Below are positions 5,518 through 31,080 of a stretch of DNA of 64,000 nucleotides, piece after piece. The position numbers were made by a program, and so were the translations under genes. Within the stretch, counting starts at the first letter, position 1, and every line of letters starts with the position of its first letter. This DNA comes from an uncultured Kiloniellales bacterium (lineage in GTDB: Bacteria; Actinomycetota; Acidimicrobiia; Spongiisociales; UBA5794), in NCBI GenBank assembly GCA_964196275.1, contig CAXMSN010000001.1:12769-76768 (forward strand), read 5' to 3'. The notes beneath the pieces were generated by a model. The model had not been told where the DNA came from. It worked only from the letters and a program-made list of their open reading frames with translations, and ran no database searches.

Positions 5518-5534
5518 GTAAAAGGTTTACCAAC

Positions 5535-5708: not shown

Positions 5709-5717
5709 TAGCTGCAC

Positions 5718-6695: not shown

Positions 6696-7380
6696 CGGAC
6701 CGACCGATGGCTCGCTTGCGTCGATAGAGACTGCCCTCGGCCATTCCTTCAGCGAACCAGATCTCCTTCTCCATGCCGTCACGCACACGTCGTTCGCCGC
6801 GGAGAATCACGGCGCCACGTCATACGAGCGCCTCGAATTCCTTGGCGACGCCGTCCTGGAGTTGAGCACAACGGATGTGATCTTCTCGCTACTCGCGGAA
6901 GAGTCCGAGGGCCGCATGACGAAGGTCCGTGCATCGGTTGTCGACATTACGACGCTTGCCGAGGTCGCTCGCACGGTTGGACTCGCAGACGTTGTCCGCC
7001 TCGGCGTTGGGGAGGAGCGCAGTGGGGGAGCAGACAGAGATTCGATCCTCTCCGACACGATGGAGGCCGTTCTCGGAGCGATCTACGTTGACGGCGGGTT
7101 CGAAGCGGCACACGGTGTGGTCACATCTCTGTGGACAGAGATAATCGCCTCTCGTATCGCCGCACCGGTAGTAACCGACGGCAGGTCACGACTTCAGGAA
7201 CTCATTGCGCAACGTGGCGGGACCGTGAAGTTCGGGTTCGAACGGAGCGGACCTGATCATGCCGCGGTGTACGTTGCCACCGTCCTCGTCAACGGAGAGG
7301 CGGCTGGGACGGGAACAGGGAGTTCCAAGAAGTCGGCGGCGATCGCGGCATCGGACAGCGCTCTTCGGTCGGATGAGTAA
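6670..7380 (+). CDS. rnc: Ribonuclease III
   Basis: Contains the RNase III signature ERLEFLGDAVLEL and a C-terminal dsRBD. Start at an internal ATG that overlaps the plsX 3' end. Confidence 0.85.
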   Translation: MASKTPLTDGPTDGSLASIETALGHSFSEPDLLLHAVTHTSFAAENHGATSYERLEFLGDAVLELSTTDVIFSLLAEESEGRMTKVRASVVDITTLAEVARTVGLADVVRLGVGEERSGGADRDSILSDTMEAVLGAIYVDGGFEAAHGVVTSLWTEIIASRIAAPVVTDGRSRLQELIAQRGGTVKFGFERSGPDHAAVYVATVLVNGEAAGTGTGSSKKSAAIAASDSALRSDE

Positions 7381-7444
7381 GGCTACAGCCGAACAGCCAA
7401 GGTGAAGCACACGCATGTAATTCGCTCTGGTAGCCTGTGGCACC

Positions 7445-10400
7445 GTGAAACTCAAACATCTGACATTGCGAGGCTTCAAGTCGTTCGCAGATAGAACCCG
7501 ACTCGACTTCTCCACCGGCGTCAACGTTGTTGTCGGCCCCAACGGCTCGGGGAAATCCAACATCCTCGATGCCATCGCGTGGGTCATGGGCACGCAGGGA
7601 ACGAAGTCGTTGCGCACGGAGAAGATGGAAGACGTCGTCTTCGCCGGTACTGAGTCTCGCCCGCCCTTGCCTCGAGCTGAGGTGGCACTGTCGTTCGCCA
7701 ACGATGACCAGCTCATGCCACTCGGTCTCGCAGAGATCACGATCACCCGTCGTTTGTTCAGAGACGGCACGTCTGAGTACGAGCTCAACGGTGCGCCATG
7801 CCGACTGCTCGATATCCAAGAATTGCTCTCTGATGGCGGAATCGGAAGACAGCAGCACGTCTTGGTGAATCAGGGACAGGTCGGCGACATCCTCAATGCA
7901 CGCCCCGAGGATCACCGTGGCGTCATCGAGGAGGCGGCAGGTGTCACGAAGCATCGTTCGAGACGTGACAGGGCGATGCGAAGGCTCGAACGGACGGACC
8001 ACGACGTGGAGAGGCTCAACGACATTCTGGGCGAGAAGCGCAAGGCCATGCGTCCGCTCAAGAGGCAGGCGAATGCAGCTGGGCGGCACGATTCGGTCCG
8101 TGACGAGGCCCTTGCGATCAGGCTCTGGCTCGGCGGTGAGGATCTCCGGTCCATCAGGAACAGATTGAATGAAGCCGAAACCGAGCGGTCTGAAGGTGCG
8201 AACGTCCGCGACACGACCGACAAGGAGCTGACCGATCTGCTCGGCTCGCTTGAGGACCTGCGGAGTGCCGCTGGCGTGGTTGGCTCGCAGCTCAGCCGTG
8301 ACACTGCAGCCGCAGCAAGGCTCGAGACAGTGACTGAACGCCTTCGACGTATCTCCCTTGTGTCTCGTGAACGCAGAAGATCGATCGCATCGCGTGCCGA
8401 AGGTGCCGATGAACGGCGCGAGGACCTCGAGATCGAACAACGAGATCTCACCGACGTCGTGGCGAGCACCGAAGCGGCAGAGTCGGCGGCATCTGAGGAA
8501 GCTGACCGCACAGACGTGGCGCTCAAGGCACTTGAGGACGAGGAACGGTCGCTTTCCGAGCAGATCAAACTGCCGACAGAGGGCGTTGTGGCCAATCTGC
8601 GTGGCGACCTTCGCGCACTCGAGAACGCATCCCAGCGAGACGTCAGTGAGACTGAGCACATAAGGGCGCGCTTCGACGTCGTCGCTGCGCGCCGTACCGA
8701 GGAGAACGAAGAGACCGATCGCCTCAATTCCGAGATCGAAACTACAGACGCCGCTGTCACAGAACTGCAGGACGTTTACACCACGAGGAAACAGGCCAGG
8801 GAGAGCGCTCAGGTGGTCTGGGAGCGCGACGAGTCCGACGTGGCCGAAGCCAGGCTGAAGGCTGCCGGGGCGGAAGCGAGAGTGGAGGCTCTCGAGACGG
8901 CCGTTGCCGGGCTAATCGATGAGCGTGCGCGTGACCTCGCTTCGGGCGCCGATGGCGTCCTGGGTTCTCTTGTCGCACGACTCGACGTTCCTGTGGAGGT
9001 CGCAGACGCGGTTGACGCTGCGCTGGGGGAGTGGCGGGGCGCCTTCGTTGCCCAGGACCAGTCCGCCGTTCGTTCCGTTGTCGAGGTTCTCAAGGGTGCG
9101 GGTTCTGGCGGAGTGTCGGTCGTGAGTTCGAGTCCTGTCCCGGTTGATCAGACGAGGGCGATAGCGGCTCGGTTCGGCGTGGACGCGATGGTTGACGTGC
9201 TCGGTCCGAAGGCGGACGAATCAGTCGCTTCGATGTTCCTCGGTGACGTCGTGGTCGTGCAGGGTTGGATGGCGGGCTGGAGCCTGGTGTCCGAGGAGCC
9301 CTGGGTCAGAGCGGTGACGCCTGAAGGAGACCTGATCACGCAGCGGGGCATGTTCGTGGCCCAGCCGGATGGAGCAGGCCCTGCTGCGCTTGAGGCAGCT
9401 CGGGTTGGCCTTGAAGCTGCTCAGCATCAACTCACTGAGACCGAGACCGGGCTTCACAAGTCCCGGCTCGCATTCGACGGGACGAGAGAAGGCGAGCGCA
9501 GCGCCCTCGAATCGCTCGAAGCGCTGGAAGCGACCCTGGCAGGGCTCACGGAAGCGCTCGGACTCGTTGGACGAGCTCATGTCGCGTCACGCGACGAGGC
9601 AGCCCGCCTGAGCAACCGCCTGGAAGCACTCGAAGAAGCGAGAACCTCGCGTGACGAGAGGATCACTTCGCTGCGAGACCGAGTCGCCGAGTTCCAAGGA
9701 GAGGAAGCCGTCAGGCAGCAGGCGTGGGATGCCCTCAACGACCGCAGGGCGGAAGTCGCTCAACTCCGTGACGGCGCTCGTAAGCGGCGTGAGGCAGCCA
9801 CAGCGGAACTCGCTTCGATCGTTGAACGGAGGCGGATAAGTGAGCGGAGGCTTGCTGTGATCTCTTCGGAGGTCGCCCAACTGCAGTTCCTGCCTGGTCA
9901 GGACGAAGCGGTTGCCGCTCTTGAACAGATCGAGGCTCGCTCGGATCGTGTGACGCTCGTCGTCGCATCACACATCGAGGCTCTGCGCATACGGCAACGG
10001 GAGCTGAGGGAGAGCGTTGGAACTGCGAATTCCGAACTCACCGATGCAGAGGAACGTCGGGAGGTTCTCGATACGCAGCGTCGAACGTCGGCCGACGCCG
10101 TGAATGCCCTCGATATTGAGATCGCTGAACTTCGTGTGCGGGACGAGTCCGTAGCCGAAGGTTTGAGACGCGACGCCGACTCCGACGAAGCCACCGCGCT
10201 CGGTGCGGAGATGCCGGAACTGGCCTCGGGGATCAACATGAAAGAGCGTCTGGCATCCCTTGAGGCTGACCTCCGACGGATGGGACCCATCAATCCGCTC
10301 GCTGCATCTGAATACGCTGAACTGTCGGGAGAGGTCGACGAGTTGGAAGCGCAGCTCAACGACTTGAGCGACTCTCGTGCAGAGCTCAAGAAGGTCGTTG

Positions 10401-10885
10401 CAGCGCTTGATGAGCAGATGGTGACGTTGTTCGAGGAGGCGTTCGCCGAGATAGCAGGCTTCTATGAGGAGAACTTTGCGCTTGTGTTCCCTGGTGGGTC
10501 CGGAAGGTTACGAATGACAGAGTCAGACGACCCGCTCAATGCCGGTGTCCTCGTGGAGGCACAGCCGGCAGGAAAGAAGGTTGGGCGGCTTTCGCTCTTG
10601 TCGGGTGGCGAGCGTTCTCTTGCTGCACTTGCCTTCCTGTTCGCAGTGTTCCGGGCAAGACCGAGCCCGTTCTACGTGCTCGACGAGGTGGAGGCCGCGC
10701 TCGACGATGCCAACCTGCATCGATTCCTGAAACTCGTCGACACCCTGCGACGCGACGTGCAGCTGGTGATCATCACCCATCAGCAGCAGACCATGCACGC
10801 AGCAGACGTGCTGTACGGAGTAACGATGGAACCCGGGGCGTCGTCCCAGGTGATCTCCAAGCGTATGACTTCCGTTACCGTCTGA
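7445..10885 (+). CDS. smc: Chromosome partition protein Smc
   Basis: 1146 aa. N-terminal Walker A motif (GPNGSGKSNI), long coiled coils, a hinge, and a C-terminal signature LSGGERSLAALAFLFA plus Walker B motif (YVLDEVEAALD). Confidence 0.95.
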   Translation: MKLKHLTLRGFKSFADRTRLDFSTGVNVVVGPNGSGKSNILDAIAWVMGTQGTKSLRTEKMEDVVFAGTESRPPLPRAEVALSFANDDQLMPLGLAEITITRRLFRDGTSEYELNGAPCRLLDIQELLSDGGIGRQQHVLVNQGQVGDILNARPEDHRGVIEEAAGVTKHRSRRDRAMRRLERTDHDVERLNDILGEKRKAMRPLKRQANAAGRHDSVRDEALAIRLWLGGEDLRSIRNRLNEAETERSEGANVRDTTDKELTDLLGSLEDLRSAAGVVGSQLSRDTAAAARLETVTERLRRISLVSRERRRSIASRAEGADERREDLEIEQRDLTDVVASTEAAESAASEEADRTDVALKALEDEERSLSEQIKLPTEGVVANLRGDLRALENASQRDVSETEHIRARFDVVAARRTEENEETDRLNSEIETTDAAVTELQDVYTTRKQARESAQVVWERDESDVAEARLKAAGAEARVEALETAVAGLIDERARDLASGADGVLGSLVARLDVPVEVADAVDAALGEWRGAFVAQDQSAVRSVVEVLKGAGSGGVSVVSSSPVPVDQTRAIAARFGVDAMVDVLGPKADESVASMFLGDVVVVQGWMAGWSLVSEEPWVRAVTPEGDLITQRGMFVAQPDGAGPAALEAARVGLEAAQHQLTETETGLHKSRLAFDGTREGERSALESLEALEATLAGLTEALGLVGRAHVASRDEAARLSNRLEALEEARTSRDERITSLRDRVAEFQGEEAVRQQAWDALNDRRAEVAQLRDGARKRREAATAELASIVERRRISERRLAVISSEVAQLQFLPGQDEAVAALEQIEARSDRVTLVVASHIEALRIRQRELRESVGTANSELTDAEERREVLDTQRRTSADAVNALDIEIAELRVRDESVAEGLRRDADSDEATALGAEMPELASGINMKERLASLEADLRRMGPINPLAASEYAELSGEVDELEAQLNDLSDSRAELKKVVAALDEQMVTLFEEAFAEIAGFYEENFALVFPGGSGRLRMTESDDPLNAGVLVEAQPAGKKVGRLSLLSGGERSLAALAFLFAVFRARPSPFYVLDEVEAALDDANLHRFLKLVDTLRRDVQLVIITHQQQTMHAADVLYGVTMEPGASSQVISKRMTSVTV

Positions 10886-10971
10886 GCCTCTGAGCGAACG
10901 AGCCGTGTTGTGCAGGTGACCGATAGCGCGGTTACGCACGACACGGCGCCACTATCGACAAGGAAAGCTCT

Positions 10972-11982
10972 GTGGATCCGCTGATCATCCTCATCGCACT
11001 GGTCGTGATCATCGCCGCCGTAGCCGTGTTCTGGTTGGCGAGGTCGGGTTCTGACGATGAGCAGGTTGCAACATCCGAGACCAGAGCGAAGCAGGACAAG
11101 GGAGGGCTCCGGAGTCGGCTTGCAAAGACAAGATCGGTTCTTGGAGGGTCGATCACATCACTCTTCAGCTCGGCAGGCGCCGACGAAGCGGCGTGGGAAG
11201 ACCTCGAAGACGCCTTGATCCTCGCCGATGTCGGCCCTGACACAGCATCGACCGTGGTGCACGAAGTGCGTCGGCGTTCTCCTCAGAATTCCGACGAGGC
11301 AACGACGATACTGGCCGAGATCTTGTCCGGTCTCCTCGCCGGACGGGACCGGTCTCTCGACCTTTCTGCCACTCCTTCTGTTGTCGTGGTTGTCGGGGTC
11401 AACGGAACGGGGAAGACGACGTCGATCGCAAAGCTGGCAAACACGCTTGTCGCCGATGGTCGAACCGTTGTCCTGGGGGCGGGGGACACCTATCGGGCGG
11501 CGGCAGACCATCAGCTCCAAGAGTGGGGAACCAGGGTCGGCGTCGAGGTGATCACCGGTGAGGCTGGATCCGATCCGGCAAGCGTCGCGTTCGCCGCAGT
11601 CGACCACGCCAAGTCCAACGAGGTCGACGTGGTCATCGTGGACACCGCTGGCAGGTTGCACTCGCAGACGAACCTGATGGATGAGCTGACCAAGGTCACG
11701 AAAATCGTCGCACGCGAGGCGGGATCAGTATCTGAGGTCCTGCTCGTGCTCGATGGAACAACAGGACAGAACGGCATCGCACAAGCTCGGGCCTTTGCCG
11801 AAGCGGTCGGAGTCACCGGCATTGTCCTCACGAAGCTCGACGGTACCGCGAAGGGCGGTATCGCGATCGCAGTCGAGCGCGAGCTTGATATCCCCATCAA
11901 GTACATTGGGGTGGGCGAAGGCATGGACGACCTGATGCCGTTTGTGCCAGATGACTTTGTGGAGGCGCTGATCACATCATGA
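10972..11982 (+). CDS. ftsY: Signal recognition particle receptor FtsY
   Basis: N-terminal TM segment, then an SRP-GTPase NG domain with GVNGTGKTTS, DTAGR and TKLDG motifs. GTG start preceded by an AGGAAAG RBS. Confidence 0.9.
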   Translation: MDPLIILIALVVIIAAVAVFWLARSGSDDEQVATSETRAKQDKGGLRSRLAKTRSVLGGSITSLFSSAGADEAAWEDLEDALILADVGPDTASTVVHEVRRRSPQNSDEATTILAEILSGLLAGRDRSLDLSATPSVVVVVGVNGTGKTTSIAKLANTLVADGRTVVLGAGDTYRAAADHQLQEWGTRVGVEVITGEAGSDPASVAFAAVDHAKSNEVDVVIVDTAGRLHSQTNLMDELTKVTKIVAREAGSVSEVLLVLDGTTGQNGIAQARAFAEAVGVTGIVLTKLDGTAKGGIAIAVERELDIPIKYIGVGEGMDDLMPFVPDDFVEALITS

Positions 11983-12368
11983 CGCATGAAGAACTTCTCG
12001 AAGCCGCGGCTGAAGCTGCGACAAGATCGTATTCACCTTATTCGTCGTTCCGTGTTGGAGCGGCAGTACTCGCAGCCGACGGGACCGTGTACACCGGGGC
12101 GAACGTCGAGAACGCCGCATACGGTTCTGCCGTCTGTGCAGAGGCCTCCGCGATCAGCGCCGCCGTGAATGCCGGCGTACGCAAGATCGAAACGGTTGCT
12201 GCGGTCTGCCTTGATGGCGAATTCTGTAGCCCGTGTGGCAACTGCCGCCAGATCATGCAGGAATTCTTCGTGGAGACGGTGATCATGCACGGGCCGGATG
12301 GCACGCCCAATGCTCTGCCACTGTCGGAACTGCTGCCCCTGTCGTTCGGTCCCGAGGCCCTCGGCTAG
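11979..12368 (+). CDS. cdd: Cytidine deaminase
   Basis: Contains the zinc ligand motifs CAEASAI and SPCGNCRQ. ATGA overlap with ftsY. Confidence 0.85.
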   Translation: MTHEELLEAAAEAATRSYSPYSSFRVGAAVLAADGTVYTGANVENAAYGSAVCAEASAISAAVNAGVRKIETVAAVCLDGEFCSPCGNCRQIMQEFFVETVIMHGPDGTPNALPLSELLPLSFGPEALG

Positions 12369-12387
12369 ACGGCTCGAACGAAGCAGG

Positions 12388-12473
12388 TATTACGTACCAC
12401 GTAGTACGTACAACTCCGGCGTCGTACTACGTAATCCGTACGACGCCCCACAGCCGGCTATCTCCCCTGCTAC
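12388..12473 (+). repeat. Composite TACGTA-hairpin plus pyrimidine-rich TCTCCCCTGC element, copy 1
   Basis: AT-rich island ATTACGTACCACGTAGTACGTAC...CGTACTACGTAAT. A 10-bp inverted repeat (ACGTAGTACG/CGTACTACGT) forms the stem. It is followed by CCGTACGAC...TCTCCCCTGCTAC. It lies between convergent cdd and etfA. Related copies are at ~23556, ~40888 and ~50115. Confidence 0.6.
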
Positions 12474-13414
12474 GAGCGCGCTTTGAGCGCCTCGATCAGC
12501 TGGGGCACCACCTTGTGGACGTCGCCAACGACGCCTAGGTCAGCGAGACCGAAGATCGGAGCGTCCGGATCCTTGTTGATCGCGATGATGGTCGCGGAAC
12601 CCTTCATGCCGACCAGATGCTGCATGGCTCCCGAGATCCCACATGCGATGTATACAGATGGCTTGACGGTCTTGCCCGTCTGCCCGACCTGGTAGCTGTA
12701 GGGAACCCAGCCAGCGTCTACGACCGCCCTCGTGCCACCAACGGCTCCACCGAGGAGGCCAGCAAGTTCGTGCATCATGTCGAACTTGTCACCGCTCCCG
12801 AGCCCTCGCCCGCCAGACACGACGACGGCTGCAACCTCGAGGTTGGGGCCTTCTGACGCCTCGACATGACGTTCGGTCACCGTTGCCCCACCGGATCGAC
12901 CGGTATCAGGCATCTCCACGGTGTGCACGGTGGGAGTGACGCCGCCTGTCGGTTCCGCTGTGAAGGCCTTTGGCCGCGTGACGATGATCGCGGGACTCTT
13001 GGCTGTGAACTCGGTCGAGATTCCCAGCGTGCCACCAAGGATCTCTGAGAAGACCGTGATGGTGTCGGTTCCGTCGAAGTCGAGGGCATTGGAAATGACT
13101 GGTCTACCCATCCGCGCGGCGAGTCTGCCCGCGATGTCCCTGTCCATGTTCCCTGCACCGAACAACACGATGTCAGCTGACTCCACCAGCGTGGCCATGG
13201 CCGCTGACGCCGGCGCGGAGGCGAGCGTGTCTCCGGCATCGAAGTGGTAGACATCCGAGGCCCCGTGGTCGCCGAGCGCAGCGAAGCTGGCATCGGAGCC
13301 TGCGCCGAGATAGAACACGTGCACATCGCCGTGAGTCTGCGCCTTGCTGATGAGTTCAAGGGAACCTGTCGACGGTACGCCTTCGTCTTCTTCTGCGAAA
13401 ACCCAAATATTCAT
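12470..13414 (-). CDS. etfA: Electron transfer flavoprotein alpha subunit
   Basis: 314 aa. Carries the ETF-alpha FAD-binding C-terminal region ([13 protein letters not shown]...IIAINKD). Confidence 0.85.
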
Positions 13415-14170
13415 TCAGATCACCTTGGCCTGTTCGAGCGTCTCAACGATCTTGATATACGCGTCACCGTCGTCCTCGACGATCTCGCCTGCGGCTCGAG
13501 CCTCGACGGGTTCGACACTTCGGATCATCTGGCCCGTTTCTGACTCAATGCCGAGATCGGCGGCAGTGAGTGTGCTGACGGGCTTCGACTTCGCCTGCAT
13601 GATTCCCTTGAAGGTCGGGTATCTCGGCTCGACCCCCGCGGTAACCGTTACGAGCGCCGGTGCCGGCGCCGTCACGACATCGTATCCGCCGGCAGTCTGG
13701 CGCTCGATGGTGATGGCGCCATCGGCCGCCTCGACCTTCCGTGCGAACGAAAGGCACGGTACGTCGAGAAGTTCGGACATCATCTGTGGCATGACGCCGC
13801 TGTACCCGTCGGTCGACTCGGTGCCAGTGACAACAAGGTCGAACCCCTCCTGAGTCATAGCCGCAGAGAGCACGCGTGCAGTAGTGAGAGCGTCGGAACC
13901 CCTGAGGGCTTCGTCGTCGATCACGACTGCACGGTCCGCGCCCATAGCAAGAGCCGTGCGAAGACCCTGCTGTCCTCCTGTTGGTCCCATGCTGTAGACC
14001 GTGACGGTCCCCTCGGTCGCCTCGGCGAGTTGTAGCGCGATCTCGACGCCCGATTTGTCTGTGTCGTCGAGTACCTGGTCGTCCGGCCGGACGACCCAGT
14101 GGTTCTCATCATCGAGTTCGTACGGTGACGCTGGGTCAGGAATCTGCTTCACGCAGACCGCGATGTTCAT
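13415..14170 (-). CDS. etfB: Electron transfer flavoprotein beta subunit
   Basis: 251 aa. Begins MNIAVCVKQIPD with a typical ETF-beta N-terminus. Sits directly upstream of etfA on the same strand. Confidence 0.85.
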   Translation of the reverse strand: MNIAVCVKQIPDPASPYELDDENHWVVRPDDQVLDDTDKSGVEIALQLAEATEGTVTVYSMGPTGGQQGLRTALAMGADRAVVIDDEALRGSDALTTARVLSAAMTQEGFDLVVTGTESTDGYSGVMPQMMSELLDVPCLSFARKVEAADGAITIERQTAGGYDVVTAPAPALVTVTAGVEPRYPTFKGIMQAKSKPVSTLTAADLGIESETGQMIRSVEPVEARAAGEIVEDDGDAYIKIVETLEQAKVI

Positions 14171-14238
14171 GGCGTTCCGCTCCTTCTTGTGGCTGTTCGC
14201 ATGTTACGAACGGCTGCGCGCTTTAGGTAAACCCGCGT

Positions 14239-15069
14239 TCACACGCCCCCAACCAGCGTGGGGAGGAAACGATCAACCACATTCGTGAACGTCTGTCTGG
14301 CGATGCCAGCGGTTTCGGTGACCTCTTCGTGGGACAGCGGTGTGGGGGAGATGCCCGCCGCCAGGTTCGTCACAAGTGATATGCCGACGACCTCTGCACC
14401 CATGTGCCGTATCGCGATCGCTTCTGGTGCGGTCGACATCCCCACCAGGTCCGCGCCCATCCGCTTGGCCATCTGGACCTCGGCCGGTGTCTCGTAGGTT
14501 GGTCCGAGGAACCAGGCGTAGACGCCCTCATGTGGCGTGATGCCAGCTTCGGTGAAGGTTTCTGCGAGCGCTGCTCGCAACGTCGGGCTGTAGACATTCG
14601 TCATGTCTGGAAAGCGTGGTCCGAGCCTGTCGTCGTTGGGCCCGGTCAGCGGATTCCGTCCGGTCAGATTGAGGTGGTCCGAGATGATGACCAGATCTCC
14701 TGGGATCAGGTTCTCGTTCACGCCACCGGCGGCGTTCGTCAGCAGAACGCGAGTCGCGCCGGAAGCAACCGCCGTACGGACACCGAAGACGACGTCATCC
14801 ATCTCCCATCCCTCGTACGTGTGGACTCTCCCGGAGAAGAGCAGCACTCTTCCGTCGCCGACCGGGGCTGAGTACAGGCTGCCGGAGTGACCCGCAACTT
14901 GGGGTTGCGGGAAGCCGGGGATGTCCGCGTACGGGATCTCGATGGCGCCGTCGATGCTGGCCGCGTAACTGCCGAGCCCAGAGCCGAGCACGACAGCAGC
15001 CTCGTGCGACTCGTGGCCGGTACGTGCCTTGATGGCGGTCGCTGCTGCCATAAGCGTGTGGTAGTTCAT
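14239..15069 (-). CDS. punA: Purine nucleoside phosphorylase (PNP/MTAP family)
   Basis: Starts at the internal Met (MNYHTLMAAATAIKARTGHESHEAAVVLGSGLG), whose ATG overlaps the deoA stop as ATGA. Trimeric PNP family. Confidence 0.8.
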   Translation of the reverse strand: MNYHTLMAAATAIKARTGHESHEAAVVLGSGLGSYAASIDGAIEIPYADIPGFPQPQVAGHSGSLYSAPVGDGRVLLFSGRVHTYEGWEMDDVVFGVRTAVASGATRVLLTNAAGGVNENLIPGDLVIISDHLNLTGRNPLTGPNDDRLGPRFPDMTNVYSPTLRAALAETFTEAGITPHEGVYAWFLGPTYETPAEVQMAKRMGADLVGMSTAPEAIAIRHMGAEVVGISLVTNLAAGISPTPLSHEEVTETAGIARQTFTNVVDRFLPTLVGGV

Positions 15070-18798: not shown

Positions 18799-19272
18799 AT
18801 GGCAACCAAAATCCGCCTGACGCGGCTTGGTAAGAAGAAACAGCCGACGTACCGCGTCGTCGTGATGGACTCCCGCAAGCCCCGTGATGGAAAATACATC
18901 GAGCAACTCGGGATCTACGATCCCCGCCAGCAGCCGTCGCTCATCAAGATCGACAACGAGCGGGCGCTCCATTGGCTTCGCACCGGTGCACAGCCGACAG
19001 AGCGGGCGCAGAAGCTCCTCGAGATTTCAGGAGCCTGGACCCAGTTCAAGGTGGCTAAGGGCGACATCCATACCGTGGCGGACACTCCTGCTGTGGTTGA
19101 GGAAGTTGTAGCTGAGGCGGTCGCTGTTGAGGCCGTTGCGGTTGAAGCAGACGACGGAGCAGAGGATGTCGGAAGTCCGAAGTCCGAGGTCCGAGCAGAA
19201 GAAGAGACAGAAGTAGCAGAAGCAGATCAGCAAGAAGAAGTAACCGCTGACGAGAGTTCGGAAGAAGCATGA
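18799..19272 (+). CDS. rpsP: 30S ribosomal protein S16 with acidic C-terminal extension
   Basis: Starts MATKIRLTRLGKKKQPTYRVVVMDSR. The C-terminal ~60 aa are E/A/V-rich (AVAVEAVAVEADDGAEDV...EETEVAEADQQEE). Confidence 0.9.
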   Translation: MATKIRLTRLGKKKQPTYRVVVMDSRKPRDGKYIEQLGIYDPRQQPSLIKIDNERALHWLRTGAQPTERAQKLLEISGAWTQFKVAKGDIHTVADTPAVVEEVVAEAVAVEAVAVEADDGAEDVGSPKSEVRAEEETEVAEADQQEEVTADESSEEA

Positions 19273-19521: not shown

Positions 19522-20085
19522 GTGGCCGAAGGCCATACAGATCGCATCCCCGTCGGATACGTGCGAAGACCGCACGGCATTCGTGGGGATGTTGTCGTTC
19601 GCGGCCTCGTAGACGACGCCGAAGCCAAGTTCGCAGTAGGAGCATCGTTCCTTTCGAACGAAGACCCGCCCGCTGATCTGACGATCGCGATGGTTGCTCC
19701 CTTGAAGGGCGACTACAGGATCCACTTCGAGGAGGTCTCCGACAGAAATCGCTCGGAGGGTCTCCAAGGCGTGCAGATCACAGTTCCGTCCGGCGAACGC
19801 AGGCAACTCGAAGACGACGGGTGGTGGCCCGAGGACCTGATCGGGTGCCAGGTACTCGACGCCGAAGGCAGCGAGATCGCCGTGGTTCGCGAGGTCATCA
19901 TCGGGAGCGCCCAAGATCGCCTGGCGGTAGAGGCGAAGGATGGCTCCACGGCCGAGATCCCATTCGTCGATGCACTCGTCCTCAAGGTCGACATCGCCAA
20001 CGATGAGATCATCGTCGATCTCCCGGACGGCCTGTTCGAGTCGACGGACCACGGACCACGGACCACGGACGGCAGAAGTTCTTAG
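19522..20085 (+). CDS. rimM: Ribosome maturation factor RimM
   Basis: GTG start immediately after the KH-gene stop. Contains the RimM GIRGDVVV motif and a PRC barrel. Its C-terminal residues DHGPRTTDG are encoded by a GGACCAC heptad repeat. Confidence 0.8.
   Translation: MAEGHTDRIPVGYVRRPHGIRGDVVVRGLVDDAEAKFAVGASFLSNEDPPADLTIAMVAPLKGDYRIHFEEVSDRNRSEGLQGVQITVPSGERRQLEDDGWWPEDLIGCQVLDAEGSEIAVVREVIIGSAQDRLAVEAKDGSTAEIPFVDALVLKVDIANDEIIVDLPDGLFESTDHGPRTTDGRSS
20046..20070 (+). repeat. (GGACCAC)x3.5 tandem heptamer inside the rimM 3' coding end
   Basis: A perfect GGACCACGGACCACGGACCACGGAC run. It is the reverse complement of the GTGGTCC unit in the 641-696 array. Confidence 0.8.
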
Positions 20086-20160: not shown

Positions 20161-20194
20161 TGGTCTGTTGTCTGTGGTCTGTTGTCTGTGGTCC
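20161..20194 (+). repeat. (TGGTCTGTTGTCTG)x2 + TGGTCC tandem repeat upstream of icmF
   Basis: Two perfect 14-mers followed by TGGTCC. It ends 25 nt before the icmF ATG. GTGGTC-family motif. Confidence 0.8.
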
Positions 20195-23555: not shown

Positions 23556-23708
23556 CGCTCCGGACCATGGACTACGAGGCTTCCCCGTATTACGTATGAC
23601 GTATGACGTACTCCGGAGCGGCCTCGACGTTGTTCTGCTGATTGATCGATCAGAGCCGAGCGGCTTGGTAGAGAGCTACGGGCATTTCCGTGGTCCGTAG
23701 TCCTCTGC
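23556..23708 (+). repeat. Composite TACGTA-hairpin plus GTCCGTAGTCCTCTGC element, copy 2
   Basis: Inverted repeat CGCTCCGG (23556-63) / CCGGAGCG (23613-20) enclosing GGACCATGGACTAC and GTATTACGTATGACGTATGACGTAC. It is followed at 23688-23708 by CCGTGGTCCGTAGTCCTCTGC. It lies between convergent icmF and the Rieske-TPP gene. Confidence 0.55.
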
Positions 23709-25639
23709 TAGTACTGAAGCTTGCTTGAGCGGATGTCCAGGACGCCTGGGCCCTTGGTGGCGAAGAGTTCGGTCATTCCTTCGTCAAGATCTGCGGGCGT
23801 TTCGACGCGTCGGCCGTACATGTCGAGGGAGGTCGCCATGTTGGCCCACGATGGGTTTTTGAGCTTCGTTGCCCATACGTGCGTGTTTGCGAGTTGCTGT
23901 TCTGCGGTGATCTTTCCAAGCTCGTCGTTGGAGAGGACGAGCATCTTCACGTTGAGGTCGTGGAGAGCAACGGTCGCGAGTTCCAGTGCGTACTGGCCGA
24001 ATCCGCCGTCGCCTGCGATGCCCACGATGGTCTTCTCCGGATACGCGGCCGCAGCACCGATCGCGGCCGGCAATGCGTATCCGATCGAACCAAGCCATCC
24101 CGACATCGCGACCCGTTGCCCGTTCGCCTGGAAGTACCGGCCAAAGGAGTAGGTCGAATTGCCAACGTCGAGTGCGACGATCGCGTCGTGGGGAATGTGT
24201 CGTTCAAGAGCCGTGAAGATCGCTGCACTCGTCAGCCGTCCGTCACGATCGAGTCCCAATCTGGATCGCTTCCTCTCGTTCCACCAGGCCTTTCGCGTTT
24301 CCAACCACTCCCGGAGTTCCGGACGATCCTTCGCTGCCGTTACGGTTGTCAGCGCTGTTGCGGTCTCCCCAGCGTCAGCCAGAGCGAACACCTCCACGTT
24401 CGCACCGTTGCGACGAGACGCAAGCGGGTCGGTATCGATCCGAACGACGCGGCGTTTCGGTGTGATCCCCGTGTGGGGAGCCATGCCTCCGCCGAACACG
24501 ACGATCAGATCCGACCGCGTCTGCATCGCGGCGGAAACGGGTGTGCCCGACCTGCCGAGAACGCCTGTCGACAGCGCCGACGTCTCGTCGACGCAACCCT
24601 TCGCCGGGAAGGTCGTCGCAACGGCGGCGTCAACGTGTTCCGCCAGGTCGAGGATGGCGCTGGCGTGCGGTCCGCCGCCCCTGCCGATCACGAACAGCGG
24701 CGTTTCAGCCTCGTCGATCATCCTGGCGATCTCGACGACATCCTGGGGCGTGGGGGAGAGGTGGTTTTCGAGCGGGCGGATGGGGACGTGTACATCGTCA
24801 GTGGCTGGCAATGTCTGGACGTCGTCGGGAATCACAAGATGGGAGATGTCATGCTGCGTTGTTGCATACGTAAGCATGTCGGCTGCCACATCGGGGCCGT
24901 CGCTCGCAGACATTCGCTTTGACCATCCGGCGACAGGCCCCATAGCGCTTACAAGCGGAACTTCCTGGAACGCCCTGGTTCCGAGCAGTTTCGTCGGAAT
25001 CTGGCCCGTGATAGCGAGCAGCGGCGTGTTCGAGAGTTTCGCGTCCCACATTCCGGTGTACAGGTTCGTCGCACCCGGACCCGCGATAGCGAAACAGACA
25101 GCGGGCTTCCCTGTCAGCTTTCCGAACGACGATGCAGCGAACGCTGCCGCACCTTCGTGTCGCACGCCGATGAATCGAAGGTCGCCACGTTTCTCTGCCG
25201 CTCGGAAGGCATCGGCGAGGCCGAGATTCGAGTGTCCGACTATGCCGAAGACCGCTGTGATCCCACCCTCGACGAGTTCGTCCACGACCTGTGTCATGAG
25301 CGTTGTGTCATGGATGACTGGTTCCTCGACTCCAATGTGGATTCCGTCGTCGCGCTCCTCGACGGGAAAGCATTCAACACGGTCATCGAACGGGCCGGGT
25401 GTCTCGCCCGTCTTCGGGTCGTATTCCCAGCCATGCCATGGACAGACGAGCCACTGACCCTCAATGAGACCTTCCCCGAGCGGCCCCCCCTGGTGTGGGC
25501 AGCGGTTGGAGACGGCTCCCCAGCCGTCCTCGGTCCGCGACAGCGCGAGCGTGAAGTGGCCTGCTTGAACCACCGTGACGGTTCCCACGGCGATCTCATC
25601 TGCGTCGGCAACCCGGAACCAAGTAAGCGAATCGGTCAT
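23708..25639 (-). CDS. Rieske [2Fe-2S] domain fused to a thiamine-pyrophosphate/FAD-type (acetolactate synthase/pyruvate oxidase-like) enzyme
   Basis: N-terminal Rieske ligand motifs CPHQGGPL and CPWHGWEY. These are followed by TPP_enzyme N/M/C architecture: catalytic Glu in RHEGAAAFAA, and GDGGFGQY...LSNDELGKI matching the TPP/Mg motif. ATG 25639 preferred over the in-frame GTG 25657, which lies inside a repeat. Confidence 0.8.
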   Translation of the reverse strand: MTDSLTWFRVADADEIAVGTVTVVQAGHFTLALSRTEDGWGAVSNRCPHQGGPLGEGLIEGQWLVCPWHGWEYDPKTGETPGPFDDRVECFPVEERDDGIHIGVEEPVIHDTTLMTQVVDELVEGGITAVFGIVGHSNLGLADAFRAAEKRGDLRFIGVRHEGAAAFAASSFGKLTGKPAVCFAIAGPGATNLYTGMWDAKLSNTPLLAITGQIPTKLLGTRAFQEVPLVSAMGPVAGWSKRMSASDGPDVAADMLTYATTQHDISHLVIPDDVQTLPATDDVHVPIRPLENHLSPTPQDVVEIARMIDEAETPLFVIGRGGGPHASAILDLAEHVDAAVATTFPAKGCVDETSALSTGVLGRSGTPVSAAMQTRSDLIVVFGGGMAPHTGITPKRRVVRIDTDPLASRRNGANVEVFALADAGETATALTTVTAAKDRPELREWLETRKAWWNERKRSRLGLDRDGRLTSAAIFTALERHIPHDAIVALDVGNSTYSFGRYFQANGQRVAMSGWLGSIGYALPAAIGAAAAYPEKTIVGIAGDGGFGQYALELATVALHDLNVKMLVLSNDELGKITAEQQLANTHVWATKLKNPSWANMATSLDMYGRRVETPADLDEGMTELFATKGPGVLDIRSSKLQY

Positions 25640-25650
25640 GGATGCAGAGT

Positions 25651-25692
25651 AGACCACGGACCACGGACTACAGACTTCGGACTACGGAACCT
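25651..25692 (+). repeat. Degenerate heptad array AGACCAC-GGACCAC-GGACTAC-AGACTTC-GGACTAC-GGAACCT
   Basis: Six 7-nt units lying 12 nt upstream of the Rieske-TPP ATG. It reads GTGGTCC on the gene's sense strand. It lies between the lipoprotein gene and the Rieske-TPP gene. Confidence 0.7.
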
Positions 25693-26545
25693 CGATTACC
25701 ACGATCGTGCCTACTTCGGGGTCGATGGCGACGTCCCCTGAGCCGACGAAGATCTCGACCGTGCCCGACGGCCCGTCTGGGATCGAGACGACGAAGGCCT
25801 GCCACGCATCTGTCCATCCTGGCAGCGAGTGCGAGATGTCCGTGACGACCTCGCCGTCTGACACGAGTTGTACCTTGGTGGATGGCTCGCTCGGTGCTGC
25901 GTATCCCTCGACGGTGAAGGGGTAGATCGTCGGACCTGCCGGAGGGGTCACCACGATGGCGGTTCTGGACGTTCCCGCTCCAATCGGGTGGGCATCCGAC
26001 TCCGATGCGATCACGTCGATGACGAGCGTCGACGGGGAGGCAGTCACGAAGGCGCGTGCGGCGATAGCCAGACCATGCCGTCCGTGGATATCGATCGACA
26101 TCGCGTCGTCATCACCTCGTACGACGAACGCTCTTTCAACGAGGTTCCCATCGGCGAGCATGTCGGCGACTGCAGTGTCCGTGAGTTCGGCTGGAAGGGC
26201 AATACGAACCACCGATGCAAAGCTGAGAACCGAGACGCCGGTTGGTCCGAGCGTCTTGGCTGGTGCTCCTGATGTTGACGCGAACGCGATGGTTATCCGC
26301 TCGCACGAAGCAGACCCGTCCCACCGGATGCTCGAGAGCGTCGTGGCATCGCCAACGTCCTCGCCAAGGGCAGCGACGAGTCCGTCCTCACCGAATTTCA
26401 GATCGCCGCTCTTGCAGATCTCGTCGGACGGCTGGGTCGTCGTTGTCGTCACGACCACTGACGTGGTCGTCACCGATGGCGATGGCTCCCCGGGCGAGCA
26501 GGAAGACACCGCAAGGGCGATCAATGCAAGAGTCCACCAGCGCAT
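25682..26545 (-). CDS. Hypothetical secreted lipoprotein
   Basis: Signal peptide plus lipobox (MRWWTLALIALAVSSCS), then a Thr-rich linker (VTTTSVVVTTTTTQ). No recognisable catalytic motif. Sits upstream of the Rieske-TPP gene on the same strand. Confidence 0.6.
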   Translation of the reverse strand: MRWWTLALIALAVSSCSPGEPSPSVTTTSVVVTTTTTQPSDEICKSGDLKFGEDGLVAALGEDVGDATTLSSIRWDGSASCERITIAFASTSGAPAKTLGPTGVSVLSFASVVRIALPAELTDTAVADMLADGNLVERAFVVRGDDDAMSIDIHGRHGLAIAARAFVTASPSTLVIDVIASESDAHPIGAGTSRTAIVVTPPAGPTIYPFTVEGYAAPSEPSTKVQLVSDGEVVTDISHSLPGWTDAWQAFVVSIPDGPSGTVEIFVGSGDVAIDPEVGTIVVIEVP

Positions 26546-28075: not shown

Positions 28076-29212
28076 GTGCTCGGTACGCCTGACCCAGATC
28101 TTGCGCTTCGGTTCCTCGATTCTTCTGTCGACGGTTCCGAACTGCTTTCAACGGCATCCTCGCTGAGGAATGACGGTCACGGCACGACGATCACGTACTC
28201 GAAGAAGGTGTTCGTGCCCATCACGACGATGTGCAGGGACACGTGCACCTACTGCACCTTCGTGAAGCCTCCCGGAAACGGTGGCGAATATCTTGAGCCC
28301 GAGGACGTGCTGGCGATAGTGACGGCCGGGGACGAACTCGGCTGCACAGAAGCGCTGTTGACCCTTGGCGACCGACCCGAGGACAAGTGGCCGCAGGCGC
28401 GTCAGTTCCTCTCTGACCATGGGGCTGCTTCGACGCTCGACTACGTGGTGATGATGTCGGAGTTGATACGGGCCGAGACCGGGCTCTTCCCTCACGCCAA
28501 TCCGGGGATCATGGACCGCGAGGCGGTCGCATCGCTGCGCAAGACCAACGTGTCAATGGGCCTCATGCTTGAGAACATCTCGCACCGGCTTACCGAGCCG
28601 GGAATGCCCCATCACAACTGTCCCGACAAGATCCCCGCAGTTCGGGTCGAGACGATCCGGGAAGCCGGTCGCCAGAACGTTCCGTTCACAACCGGCATCC
28701 TTGTCGGTATCGGAGAGACCGCCGAAGAGATCGTCGAAAGCCTGTTCGCGCTGAGGGACCTTCAGACGGAGTTCGGGCATCTTCAGGAGTTCATCATCCA
28801 GAACTTCAGGGCGAAAGCCGACACCCGGATGCGCAACGCACCGGAGCCATCCATACCGTTCTTCGTCCGTGTCGTTGCGCTCGCACGATGGATACTCGGA
28901 GCCGAGGCGAACCTGCAGGTGCCCCCGAACCTGACGGACGACTTCGGTGTCTATCTCGATGCGGGAATCAATGACTGGGGCGGTGTGAGCCCCTTGACGA
29001 TTGACTGGGTCAACCCAGAGGCACCATGGCCGCAGCTCGAAAGACTCGATGCGGTGACGAGCGCCCATGGGTTCTCATTGCGACCCCGCCTCCCCGTCTA
29101 CCCCGAGTACCTCACGGCGCAGTGGATCGATGCCGACCTGTTCGGAGCGGCGTCGGCCGCTGCTACTGAGGACGGCTACGCTGCGACCTCCGAATCTGAG
29201 AAGGCCAGATGA
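28076..29212 (+). CDS. cofG: 7,8-didemethyl-8-hydroxy-5-deazariboflavin (FO) synthase subunit CofG (radical SAM)
   Basis: Radical-SAM CxxxCxxC motif (CRDTCTYCTF) and CofG-like length. ATGA overlap with cofH. Confidence 0.8.
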   Translation: MLGTPDPDLALRFLDSSVDGSELLSTASSLRNDGHGTTITYSKKVFVPITTMCRDTCTYCTFVKPPGNGGEYLEPEDVLAIVTAGDELGCTEALLTLGDRPEDKWPQARQFLSDHGAASTLDYVVMMSELIRAETGLFPHANPGIMDREAVASLRKTNVSMGLMLENISHRLTEPGMPHHNCPDKIPAVRVETIREAGRQNVPFTTGILVGIGETAEEIVESLFALRDLQTEFGHLQEFIIQNFRAKADTRMRNAPEPSIPFFVRVVALARWILGAEANLQVPPNLTDDFGVYLDAGINDWGGVSPLTIDWVNPEAPWPQLERLDAVTSAHGFSLRPRLPVYPEYLTAQWIDADLFGAASAAATEDGYAATSESEKAR

Positions 29213-31080
29213 ACGAGATCACGTTCCTCCAACTACGACCAGTCGATGCGGTCAACGAGATCTGGGCTTCGACGCGCCGCAGAGAAGGAACCCTTGTCGC
29301 TGAGGTGGAGAGACCGACATCTGAGGATGTTCTCAGCGCCCAGAAGGGCGGTCTCATCGTGGCGAGCGGGACAGCGGCCGCTGATGCCCCGGCCTACGTC
29401 GTGATCCCCGCTGAAGCATCGTTGCTCGCCAAGCGGAATCTCGCCGGATGGAGGGTCACGGTGCTCGACGAGGGCTCCCGCATGGATGTGCTCGACGCCC
29501 TTGCCTTCACGCGAGCGGCGTACCTGAGGACGAACCGAAGCTCGGTCCTTCAGGCCGCTGGGATGGTCGGCATTCCCGGAGGAAAAGCCGTCGTGTCTGT
29601 GTTCGTGGATGACGTAGACGACGCCGTCACCGCTGTCTCGCACGGTGCAGGTGACCTTCTGCTCAGAGATTGGGACACGGAGCGGATCGGCGAGCTGAGA
29701 GAGGCGATCGCCGAGTTCAGACTGGTAGAGCGCACCGCGTTTCCCTCCACCGTTACGTATGACGAAGCCGCAGCGGAAATGGAGAAGGGTGCATTCAGCG
29801 CTTACCTGAATCAGATCGATGGATCCGGGCGGGCACGTCCCAGAGTCGACTGGGCGCCAGGCAAGGACCTGGATACACCCGACCCAGAGTTCCGGCTTTC
29901 GTCCGCATGGAAGGACTCGTCATGGGCCGATGGCAGGCGTGCTCACTTCGAAGACGCAACGTCCGACGTAGCCGGAATACTCGCCCGTGCCCTTGCGGGA
30001 ACCGCACCGACGAAGGATGAGGTCGAGGCGCTCTTCCGAGCACACGGCACCGACGTTGAGGCGATCGCCGACGTCGCAGACACGCTCAGAGAGCAGATCG
30101 TCGGGGACGATGTCACCTTCGTCGTGAACAGGAACATCAACTACACGAACCAGTGCTACTTCAAGTGTGGATTCTGTGCGTTCTCCAAGGGGCCCCGATC
30201 GCTGGATCTGAGGGGCGAGCCGTATCTCATGTCGATCGAAGAAGTGGTCGAGAGGTCGGTCGAGGCTTGGGGGACCGGGGCCACAGAGGTGTGCCTCCAG
30301 GGAGGCATCCATCCCGAGTTCACAGGCCACTTCTATGTCGACCTGGTAACCGCGATCAAAGCCGAACTTCCTGACATCCACATCCATGGCTACACGCCCC
30401 TCGAGATCTGGCAAGGCGCCGAAACCGCCGGTGTCAGCGTGAGGGAGCTCTTGGTCGAGTTGCAGCAGGCGGGTCTCGGGACACTCCCGGGTACGGCAGC
30501 TGAGATTCTCGACGACGATGTCCGGCTGACGCTGTGCCCGGACAAGATCCGCACGAGCCAATGGGCCGAGGTCATGCTCACCGCTCATGACATAGGGCTA
30601 CGCACCACTTCGACGATCATGTTCGGGCACGTCGACGGCCCACGGTCGTGGGCGAGCCACATCGAGGTCCTGAGGCGTATCCAGCGCAAAACCGGGGGCT
30701 TCACAGAGTTCGTCCCCCTCCCTTTCGTCCACATGGGCTCACCGATCTGGCTGAGGGGTCAGTCTCGGCCCGGCCCCACATGGGATGAGGTCATCCTGAT
30801 GCACGCGGTGTCGCGCATCGCCTTCATCGGTCTGATCGACAACATTCAGGCATCGTGGGTCAAGTTGGGCCTCGATGGTGCCGGAGCGCTTCTGCGGTCC
30901 GGGTGCAACGACGTCGGTGGAACCCTGATGGATGAGTCGATATCGAGAGCTGCAGGTGCGTCCCACGGAACGCAAGTAACCGCCGCCGACTTCCGTGATC
31001 TGATCTTCGACCTCGATCGCAACCCGGTCAGACGGAACACCACATACGAGCCCATCGAATCCGGTCTCACCATCCAGTAG
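29209..31080 (+). CDS. cofH: FO synthase subunit CofH (radical SAM) with ~230-aa N-terminal domain of unknown function
   Basis: 623 aa. Residues ~240-623 are CofH-like (NINYTNQCYFKCGFCAFSKG radical-SAM motif). Residues 1-230 have no recognisable motif; they include the stretch GGLIVASGTAAADAPAYVVIPAEASLL. Confidence 0.75.
   Translation: MNEITFLQLRPVDAVNEIWASTRRREGTLVAEVERPTSEDVLSAQKGGLIVASGTAAADAPAYVVIPAEASLLAKRNLAGWRVTVLDEGSRMDVLDALAFTRAAYLRTNRSSVLQAAGMVGIPGGKAVVSVFVDDVDDAVTAVSHGAGDLLLRDWDTERIGELREAIAEFRLVERTAFPSTVTYDEAAAEMEKGAFSAYLNQIDGSGRARPRVDWAPGKDLDTPDPEFRLSSAWKDSSWADGRRAHFEDATSDVAGILARALAGTAPTKDEVEALFRAHGTDVEAIADVADTLREQIVGDDVTFVVNRNINYTNQCYFKCGFCAFSKGPRSLDLRGEPYLMSIEEVVERSVEAWGTGATEVCLQGGIHPEFTGHFYVDLVTAIKAELPDIHIHGYTPLEIWQGAETAGVSVRELLVELQQAGLGTLPGTAAEILDDDVRLTLCPDKIRTSQWAEVMLTAHDIGLRTTSTIMFGHVDGPRSWASHIEVLRRIQRKTGGFTEFVPLPFVHMGSPIWLRGQSRPGPTWDEVILMHAVSRIAFIGLIDNIQASWVKLGLDGAGALLRSGCNDVGGTLMDESISRAAGASHGTQVTAADFRDLIFDLDRNPVRRNTTYEPIESGLTIQ

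Follow-up and report, generated by a model that had tools for sequence, protein, structure and literature searches.

The 64,000-nucleotide stretch of DNA analysed here (the window; positions 12,769 to 76,768 of contig CAXMSN010000001.1, assembly GCA_964196275.1, from an uncultured Kiloniellales bacterium of the GTDB class Acidimicrobiia) carries on its minus strand one gene in which a Rieske [2Fe-2S] domain is joined in frame to a complete thiamine diphosphate (ThDP)-dependent enzyme. We refer to this 643-aa protein by the working name RskTPP, and residue numbers are counted from its ATG at position 25639. The open reading frame (ORF) extends without interruption over 23708..25657, encoding 649 aa if read from a GTG and 643 aa if read from the ATG; homologues are 643 aa long with an ATG start, so that the ATG at 25639 matches the family start. 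As shown in Table 1, the Pfam domains Rieske, TPP_enzyme_N, TPP_enzyme_M and TPP_enzyme_C all lie on the one chain, which ends about 7 residues past the last of them. A first-pass annotation of this DNA had described such a single ORF with all Rieske ligands and cofactor motifs, and had suggested a domain scan and a structure prediction. The scan placed all four domains, including Rieske PF00355, above their cutoffs with every ligand and motif present, and the AlphaFold2 model was predicted with confidence (pLDDT of 90.2 and pTM of 0.87 overall, a pLDDT of about 90 in the Rieske domain and 82-94 in the linker block). There was no local anomaly in G+C content at the gene, the inverted repeats flanking it were short and imperfect, and a promoter and terminator scan around it gave nothing beyond the expectation from shuffled sequence. 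As set out below, the domain fusion in RskTPP is genuine, conserved and widespread, and no characterisation of it was found.

Table 1. Coordinates of RskTPP, its domains and motifs, and other features of the 64-kb window.
Feature	Position	Strand	Basis
RskTPP, complete gene, 643 aa (stop codon 23708-23710)	23708..25639	-	ORF list, Pfam
Rieske domain, aa 6-102, soluble ferredoxin type	25334..25624	-	Pfam Rieske and Rieske_2, PDB relatives
Rieske box 1, C47-P-H49 (CPHQGG)	25493..25501	-	translation; invariant in 51-sequence alignment
Rieske box 2, C66-P-W-H69 (CPWHGW)	25433..25444	-	translation; invariant in 51-sequence alignment
Short Rieske-ThDP linker, aa 103-112	25304..25333	-	translation, in frame, continuous
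TPP_enzyme_N (Pyr) domain, aa 113-227	24959..25303	-	Pfam, E 1.7e-31
Catalytic H161-E162	25154-25159	-	translation; invariant; aligns to HE of E. coli PoxB
TPP_enzyme_M central domain, aa 303-430	24350..24733	-	Pfam, E 5e-19
TPP_enzyme_C (PP) domain, aa 491-636	23732..24169	-	Pfam, E 9e-28
GDG-x25-N Mg/diphosphate motif (GDGGF...LSN), G543-N571	23927-24013	-	translation
Lipoprotein gene, 287 aa, lipobox VSSC, Thr/Val-rich linker after lipobox	25682..26545	-	translation
Five GNNGTCY heptamers, upstream of RskTPP	25651..25685	-	Tandem Repeats Finder and custom scan
3.6 copies of a different unit, CGTATGA	23586-23610		Tandem Repeats Finder
GNNGTCY array	641-696	+	custom scan
GNNGTCY array	19172-19192	+	custom scan
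GNNGTCY array	20167-20194	+	custom scan
GNNGTCY array	20046-20073	-	custom scan
cofG	28076-29212	+	
cofH	29209-31080	+	

One explanation of such a gene is an artefact, in which two genes were joined by a sequencing frameshift or by chimeric assembly; we regard it as refuted. A protein 100% identical to RskTPP (P0001) is encoded in another, independent assembly in NCBI, whose DNA matches the window at 99.7% identity over 9.9 kb. The NCBI matches listed included over 100 full-length relatives in which all four Pfam domains recur, at 70-94% identity in metagenome-assembled genomes of Acidimicrobiia and other Actinomycetota and at 45-49% identity mostly in Chloroflexota. When one genome per GTDB species was scanned, 595 candidate stretches were obtained, a number that overcounts the fusion genes because HQGGPLG[DE]G, a pattern used in the scan, is also present in the Rieske box of another type of protein, FRD-Rieske, described below; the best 80 of the 595 were checked as full length. 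In all 80 of these loci the match to RskTPP begins no later than residue 7 and reaches at least residue 635; the identity is 42-48%, with one 72% relative as the exception. They belong to the Bacteroidota, Planctomycetota, Chloroflexota, Acidobacteriota, Gemmatimonadota, Myxococcota, Nitrospirales, Alpha- and Gammaproteobacteria and Actinomycetota, and the Bacteroidota among the carriers include members of the cultured genera Aquimarina, Flagellimonas, Ulvibacterium, Pseudotenacibaculum and Aureivirga. Conservation was examined in an alignment of 51 sequences reaching down to 45% identity. The four Rieske ligands, H161-E162, G543-D544-G545 and N571 were invariant, and within the linker V104 was invariant while E106 and H110 were conserved in at least 90% of the sequences. 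Since the fusion is conserved across phyla, is full length in the 80 best loci and has a conserved linker, the in-frame joining is genuine, and nothing was found in favour of an artefact.

The survey of the architecture that the first-pass annotation had advised thus located it in about ten phyla, in 80 or more genomes at species level. The impression of a rare architecture did not hold; it is common in databases, where it is labelled generically as "thiamine pyrophosphate-binding protein". As that annotation had suspected, no characterised enzyme of this architecture was found among NCBIfam equivalogs, in PDB or in the literature; no publication on Rieske- or rubredoxin-fused ThDP enzymes was found in the searchable literature, which is not proof that none exists. 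When clustered at 50% identity, the family reduces to 3-4 full-length representatives, which marks it as a single tight group of orthologues. A full-length Rieske-ThDP gene, 45% identical, is also present on a contig assigned to a Candidatus Heimdallarchaeota bin (locus L010, positions 554-2494); it could be due to horizontal transfer or to contamination of the bin.

The Rieske domain was matched by Pfam PF00355 over aa 6-81 with 61.4 bits against a cutoff of 20.3 (E 7.7e-17), and the Rieske_2 match stretches to aa 102. The ligand boxes C-x-H and C-x-x-H, separated by a 16-residue spacer, supply C47, H49, C66 and H69. In PDB, the nearest solved relatives of this domain were the ferredoxins T4moC, CarAc, NDO and BphF (E 2e-9 to 7e-6). 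The disulfide cysteine pair of the high-potential bc1-type Rieske proteins is missing, box 1 having no second cysteine. Because its best solved relatives are soluble ferredoxins and the disulfide cysteines are absent, we infer that the cluster of RskTPP is of the low-potential, mobile-carrier type. Ferredoxin-type Rieske clusters have a potential of about -150 mV, and a flavin-to-Rieske step would be feasible.

The remainder of the chain has the Pyr, central and PP domains (PF02776, PF00205 and PF02775) in this order, all well above their cutoffs, together with the catalytic glutamate E162 and the GDG-x(24-27)-N(N) motif, here G543-D544-G545...N571. By predicted fold and sequence, RskTPP belongs to the superfamily of ThDP enzymes that contains pyruvate oxidase (POX) and acetohydroxyacid synthase (AHAS), and with its N-terminus to the Rieske domain family. 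It was above none of the NCBIfam equivalog cutoffs, those for pyruvate oxidase, PoxB and pyruvate:quinone oxidoreductase (PQO) included. The best match was pyruvate oxidase PRK08611, with 310 bits against a cutoff of 742, followed by pyruvate dehydrogenase PRK06546 (263 against 893), AHAS TIGR00118 (255 against 538, which places RskTPP outside that equivalog as well), PRK09124 (240 against 792) and TIGR02720 (233 against 638). Sequence and fold searches of PDB placed AHAS, POX of L. plantarum, PoxB of Escherichia coli and PQO of Corynebacterium glutamicum about level, at approximately 24-26% identity and with Foldseek template modelling (TM) scores of about 0.72-0.74 when normalised to the query and 0.80-0.89 when normalised to the target; the top Foldseek match was AHAS 6LPI. 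Oxalyl-CoA decarboxylase and 2-hydroxyacyl-CoA lyase (HACL) were also among the matches. No solved chain in these searches spanned both the Rieske part and the ThDP core.

When RskTPP was compared with the individual enzymes, the following likenesses and differences were found. PoxB and PQO (EC 1.2.5.1; PDB 3EY9/3EYA and 9EV3-6) have the three-domain ThDP fold, and their HE and GDG...N motifs align with those of RskTPP (TM 0.72-0.74 by query, up to 0.89 by target). Glu469 of PoxB is kept as E580, whereas Phe465 is replaced by Lys, Glu or Met in the RskTPP family. The identity is only about 24%, and RskTPP has an N-terminal Rieske domain and lacks a C-terminal tail: aligned with E. coli PoxB, it ends at about PoxB residue 531, after which PoxB has another 43 residues, and PoxB-like representatives run 29-48 residues beyond the end of RskTPP. 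RskTPP therefore is without the amphipathic tail of about 40 residues that in PoxB binds the membrane and is autoinhibitory. As for pyruvate oxidase of L. plantarum and Aerococcus (EC 1.2.3.3; PDB 1POX, 4FEE and 1V5E), this family gave the best NCBIfam match and its fold matches that of RskTPP, but RskTPP scored far under the equivalog cutoff and its C-terminus is shorter. An E-Q pair after the NN motif is presumably common to RskTPP and the L. plantarum enzyme, in what we take to be the F479/E483 region of the latter. The AHAS large subunit scored comparably in the PDB sequence search (1e-51) and has a similar G-x-x-G-T loop, LGRSGT in RskTPP versus LGMHGT. However, the AHAS signatures are missing: where AHAS has GMHG, RFDDR and W-Q (with the W of the herbicide site), RskTPP reads GRSG, GMAPH and E-Q, respectively, and no gene for an AHAS small regulatory subunit was found near RskTPP. 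By analogy, RskTPP probably performs the same oxidative decarboxylation as PoxB and PQO.

The central domain posited by the first-pass annotation is thus present, and its binding of FAD was considered from the sequence. In the 51-sequence alignment, 24 residues of this domain are invariant, among them G319, G321, T342-T343, K347-G348, L361-GRSGT366, D377, G383, H389-T390 and D402; they form the loops G-x-G, TT..KG, LGRSGT, FG....HT and ID.D. Because these invariant residues sit in AHAS/POX-like nucleotide and flavin loops, the domain likely binds FAD. Lys576, at the position of PoxB Phe465, was considered as a family hallmark, since it is invariant in the 51 sequences; it was dropped because E or M is found there in other 50%-identity representatives. 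An alternative without flavin would have the central domain hold ADP or nothing, with the Rieske cluster itself oxidising the hydroxyethyl-ThDP enamine through a ThDP radical, possibly to an acyl-CoA, in the manner of pyruvate:ferredoxin oxidoreductase (PFOR). We judge this to be very unlikely. PFOR establishes that transfer from ThDP to an Fe-S cluster works, and the central domain serves to bind ADP or CoA in oxalyl-CoA decarboxylase and HACL; yet the best-scoring relatives of RskTPP are the FAD-containing POX, PoxB and AHAS, its 24 invariant residues are in the loops just named, and Rieske clusters are not known to oxidise ThDP intermediates.

The first-pass annotation had interpreted the Rieske domain as a built-in one-electron relay, and the nearest relatives of RskTPP are informative in this respect. 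The eight best-scoring full-length proteins lacking a Rieske domain were compared. Five of them (P0128, P0129, P0132, P0141 and P0142) have an N-terminal rubredoxin, located at the same position as the Rieske domain in RskTPP. P0128 and P0129 are 40% identical to RskTPP in the core and have the GRSG, H[ST] and KI..EQ signatures in common with it. P0124, a protein of 873 aa that falls inside the family, carries Fer4_19, two CDGSH domains and a Rieske domain before its ThDP core. In a neighbour-joining tree of the core, which is approximate and has no bootstrap, the rubredoxin forms P0128 and P0129 fall within the Rieske clade, and a second rubredoxin-fused clade adjoins the POX/PoxB group. Unrelated one-electron carriers have thus been recruited repeatedly to one slot, and the job of the slot would therefore be one-electron transfer; these sequence comparisons argue for the relay function more strongly than any other new evidence. 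P0210 is a further protein listed with the N-terminal rubredoxin or carrier-fused POX-like representatives. The P0128-type rubredoxin fusion is followed by a Peripla_BP_6 gene (for example, L088, positions 1911-3722), its sole consistent neighbour and an uninformative one. No published description of the rubredoxin-fused or Fer4_19/CDGSH/Rieske-fused POX-like proteins was found.

The same comparison bears on the idea that the Rieske domain is a sensor or a regulatory or structural domain, responding to O2, NO, redox state or iron and switching on or off an ALS/POX-like enzyme of the ordinary kind, while the catalytic electrons would not run through it. A sensor role is common among Fe-S domains, and no redox partners of RskTPP were found in the 64-kb window. 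Nevertheless, a rubredoxin in the same slot and the stacking of Fer4_19 and CDGSH on Rieske in P0124 fit a carrier better, as do two further Rieske-fused enzymes encoded near RskTPP genes elsewhere, one of which, FRD-Rieske, has the same HQGGPLGEG box. We consider a sensor quite unlikely, and return to the relay in examining those neighbours.

Genes neighbouring RskTPP at 76 loci were clustered, and loci at which the sequence continued for 5 kb or more in each direction were treated as well flanked (n=52). The names RskGltS, FRD-Rieske, c2, c4, c8 and c10 designate recurrent neighbour clusters. A recurrent same-strand order was found, namely RskGltS, c2, a DUF2721-like gene, RskTPP, c8/c10, FRD-Rieske, c4 and an NhaP-type antiporter; an example is the cluster of Pseudotenacibaculum haliotis (L011, positions 7084-14386), and similar ones are present at L028, L052, L065, L071, L083, L084 and others. 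RskGltS combines a Rieske domain with a glutamate-synthase-like flavin mononucleotide (FMN) domain, PF01645, in which the 3Fe-4S motif C-x5-C-x4-CP is conserved. FRD-Rieske has an MsrQ/Ferric_reduct-like membrane domain with conserved histidines (di-haem) and a C-terminal Rieske domain, whose HQGGPLGEG-type box it has in common with RskTPP; a rough analysis of charge distribution suggests that this Rieske tail is cytoplasmic. A survey of the FRD superfamily lists an FRD architecture with a Rieske domain, as an architecture only. The cofactor motifs of both RskGltS and FRD-Rieske are conserved. Of the remaining genes, c4 has a hydrophobic N-terminal stretch, a probable membrane anchor, and invariant C168, H181, C184 and C188; c8 and c10 encode small proteins, whose N-terminal stretch was hydrophobic in the members inspected; the DUF2721-like product is a small membrane protein; and c2 is weakly DUF5996-like. 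Profile searches of c2 and c4 against PDB and Pfam returned only that weak DUF5996 match, in 2 of 17 c2 members.

RskGltS was present at 24 of the 52 well-flanked loci, FRD-Rieske at 11 and either of the two at 27, mostly on the same strand as RskTPP, and at least one of RskGltS, c2, FRD-Rieske and c4 was present at 33. When RskGltS loci were examined instead, RskTPP was the commonest conserved neighbour, at 19 of 80 metagenome loci (L091-L170). RskGltS itself is 60-69% identical across phyla in all but one aligned member and is often found with no ThDP enzyme nearby. At one locus (L005, positions 3393-9989), the Rieske-ThDP gene directly follows genes of 2-oxoacid chain elongation, which encode proteins like homocitrate or isopropylmalate synthase, the large and small subunits of aconitase and a protein like isopropylmalate dehydrogenase, along with a Nitro_FeMo-Co family protein. 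This context, seen once, hints at a possible 2-oxoacid other than pyruvate.

In the window itself, RskTPP lies in a conserved core block with ffh, rpsP, rimM ... trmD and rplS, and its opposite-strand neighbours include a major facilitator superfamily transporter, split cofG/cofH and a TetR regulator. The FO synthase of F420 biosynthesis is encoded here by these split genes, which overlap by 4 nt; the CofH model covers only aa 268-616 of the 623-aa cofH product, and an N-terminal extension of about 250 aa is outside the match. Two other neighbours, a convergent icmF and an upstream lipoprotein gene, had been identified correctly by the first-pass annotation: icmF was confirmed as an NCBIfam IcmF equivalog (1620 bits against a cutoff of 1500), and the lipoprotein gene, with its lipobox VSSC, is 42 nt from the ATG of RskTPP, with which it is probably co-transcribed. 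The lipoprotein had no Pfam or NCBIfam match. Searches with phmmer and jackhmmer found homologues only in L001 and L008, and an annotated gene of 288 aa without a Pfam match occupies its position in L002; in close Acidimicrobiia relatives it is always directly upstream of the Rieske-ThDP gene. As it was found in the closest Acidimicrobiia only, the lipoprotein was rejected as a family-wide partner.

From these neighbours and from heptad repeats around the gene, it had been proposed that icmF, the lipoprotein and RskTPP together form a unit for conversion of a 2-oxoacid to an acyl-CoA and its rearrangement. IcmF is genuine and adjacent, and the same synteny recurs in L002 and L008. However, this synteny is confined to one Acidimicrobiia sublineage, within the ffh-rpsP-rimM...trmD-rplS block. 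In L008 and L002, icmF is separated from RskTPP by one to three genes, and because icmF is convergent with RskTPP, the two are not co-transcribed. Among the loci fetched, icmF and the lipoprotein gene were neighbours of RskTPP only in close Acidimicrobiia relatives, and in 0 of about 70 loci from other lineages was either found. Because these neighbours recur only in close relatives, and with heptamers of the upstream type recurring at four other sites in the window, the module was largely refuted by comparative context and is highly improbable in our estimate.

The heptamers were also considered as a feature in their own right. The array upstream of RskTPP overlaps the final codons of the lipoprotein gene, where it starts, and takes up most of the 42 nt between that gene and the ATG. 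Repeats do occur on both sides of RskTPP, as had been stated, but the downstream repeat is of a different unit, and since arrays of the upstream type (GNNGTCY, 3-8 heptamers each, e.g. GTGGTCC, GTAGTCC and GAAGTCT) are present elsewhere in the window, they do not bracket RskTPP specifically. In total, there were five such arrays in the 64 kb and none in shuffled sequence. Two of them, the array preceding RskTPP and the plus-strand array that starts at 20167, are just upstream of the next gene start in the same orientation. Of 90 loci taken from other organisms, together 1.57 Mb, only 2 contained GNNGTCY arrays. The sister assembly L001 differs from the window over 9,930 bp by a single 21-nt gap, at 99.7% identity, and has 8 units in the array before RskTPP where the window has 5; this array is therefore a variable-number repeat.

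Given the comparative evidence, we favour, with some reservation, the reading that RskTPP is a cytoplasmic pyruvate-oxidase-like ThDP enzyme in which the N-terminal Rieske domain relays single electrons within the enzyme itself. Its substrate would be a small 2-oxoacid, pyruvate being the first guess, decarboxylated on ThDP activated by Glu162. Judging from homology, the resulting hydroxyalkyl-ThDP enamine would give its two electrons to a flavin in the central domain, and these would then exit singly via the Rieske cluster. They would be taken up by a protein acceptor, in contrast to POX, which uses O2, and PoxB, which reduces membrane quinone directly. Where the operon exists, the acceptors may be the di-haem protein FRD-Rieske, leading to the periplasm or to quinone, and RskGltS as a reductase. 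The exit through the Rieske cluster is suggested by the carrier type of the cluster, the swapping of carriers, the missing PoxB tail and the Rieske-fused neighbours. The central relay idea of the first-pass annotation is thus supported by comparative evidence, and its local gene module is not; for the relay, the carrier-type Rieske domain, carrier swapping and Rieske-fused neighbours elsewhere speak in favour, and the window itself offers no partner.

Several points weigh against this reading. Searches with partner hidden Markov models, and with tblastn for RskGltS, found none of RskGltS, FRD-Rieske, c2, c4, c8, c10 or the DUF2721-like gene in the 64-kb window, and there was no partner Rieske fusion within about 10 kb of RskTPP. 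In the other phyla, RskTPP was present at only 4 of 18 well-flanked RskGltS loci; together with the 19 of 80 given above, this count weakened a reading of the set as an obligate operon, and the linkage between RskTPP and RskGltS is real but facultative. The context gave no consistent clue to the substrate, with leuA/aconitase-like genes at L005, icmF in the window and a periplasmic binding protein beside the rubredoxin form. The equivalence of the central-domain loops to the nucleotide and flavin contacts of AHAS and POX is presumed. AHAS-type enzymes bind FAD without redox use, so homology alone is no proof of an oxidative reaction. Lastly, the direction of electron flow, from RskTPP to an acceptor, is assumed by analogy with POX and PoxB.

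If the direction were reversed, the Rieske domain would feed electrons into the flavin/ThDP site, either for a reductive reaction or to keep the flavin reduced for a non-oxidative carboligase or lyase. Rieske ferredoxins usually stand in the middle of a chain and may work in either direction, the neighbours RskGltS and FRD-Rieske could be donors, and the relatives AHAS and Gcl carry FAD without net redox. On the other hand, the closest named families, POX and PoxB, are oxidative, and a carrier of about -150 mV, a value typical of this Rieske type, could not drive 2-oxoacid synthesis. We know of no reductive ThDP/FAD reaction of a POX/AHAS-type fold, and an input role therefore appears unlikely. 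We also put forward, tentatively, a wider form of the relay reading, possible but doubtful at present: RskTPP would be the entry dehydrogenase of an undescribed multi-phylum Rieske-to-Rieske system (with RskGltS, FRD-Rieske and then a membrane-anchored Cys/His protein) that moves electrons from 2-oxoacids to a cytoplasmic reductase or across the membrane, without recourse to NAD(P)H or quinone; relatives fused to rubredoxin or CDGSH would be parallel solutions to that task.

How RskTPP, read as a relay enzyme, would compare with known electron-transfer systems was also considered. By analogy, it would be functionally like PoxB with the quinone step exchanged for a step like that from a reductase to its Rieske ferredoxin. 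With a dedicated Fe-S carrier fused to the enzyme, O2 is unlikely as the intended acceptor. The Rieske ferredoxins of oxygenases (T4moC, CarAc, BphF and NDO), which work with FAD reductases, are of the same subtype, and the proposed order of flavin, Rieske cluster and protein is alike; in RskTPP, however, the carrier is fused, the electrons would come from a 2-oxoacid via ThDP rather than from NAD(P)H, and no oxygenase partner was seen. The proposed likeness to PFOR comprises oxidative decarboxylation on ThDP, built-in Fe-S relays and the delivery of single electrons to protein carriers. PFOR differs in having an unrelated architecture, [4Fe-4S] clusters, no flavin, dependence on CoA and typically a sensitivity to oxygen, and RskTPP is not a member of that family. 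The nearest relatives remain the rubredoxin-fused and Fer4_19/CDGSH/Rieske-fused POX-like proteins, in which the carrier domain differs; they inform the logic of the enzyme, not its chemistry.

Known acceptors in 2-oxoacid oxidation are NAD+ for the dehydrogenase complexes, O2 for pyruvate oxidase, quinone for PoxB and PQO, and ferredoxin for PFOR. If the relay reading is true, a POX-type enzyme to which a Rieske, rubredoxin or CDGSH carrier is fused would represent a further mode, in which single electrons pass straight to protein acceptors; for RskTPP, such a supply of single electrons from a 2-oxoacid would plausibly be possible in the presence of oxygen. To ThDP enzymology it would offer a natural case of a hard-wired step from flavin to acceptor. 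For annotation, the label "thiamine pyrophosphate-binding protein" conceals a distinct and definable family. With 42-48% identity across phyla and members in cultured marine Flavobacteriia, the idea is directly testable. Genes for two further redox proteins with fused Rieske domains often lie near that of RskTPP, which points to an electron-transfer system not yet studied.

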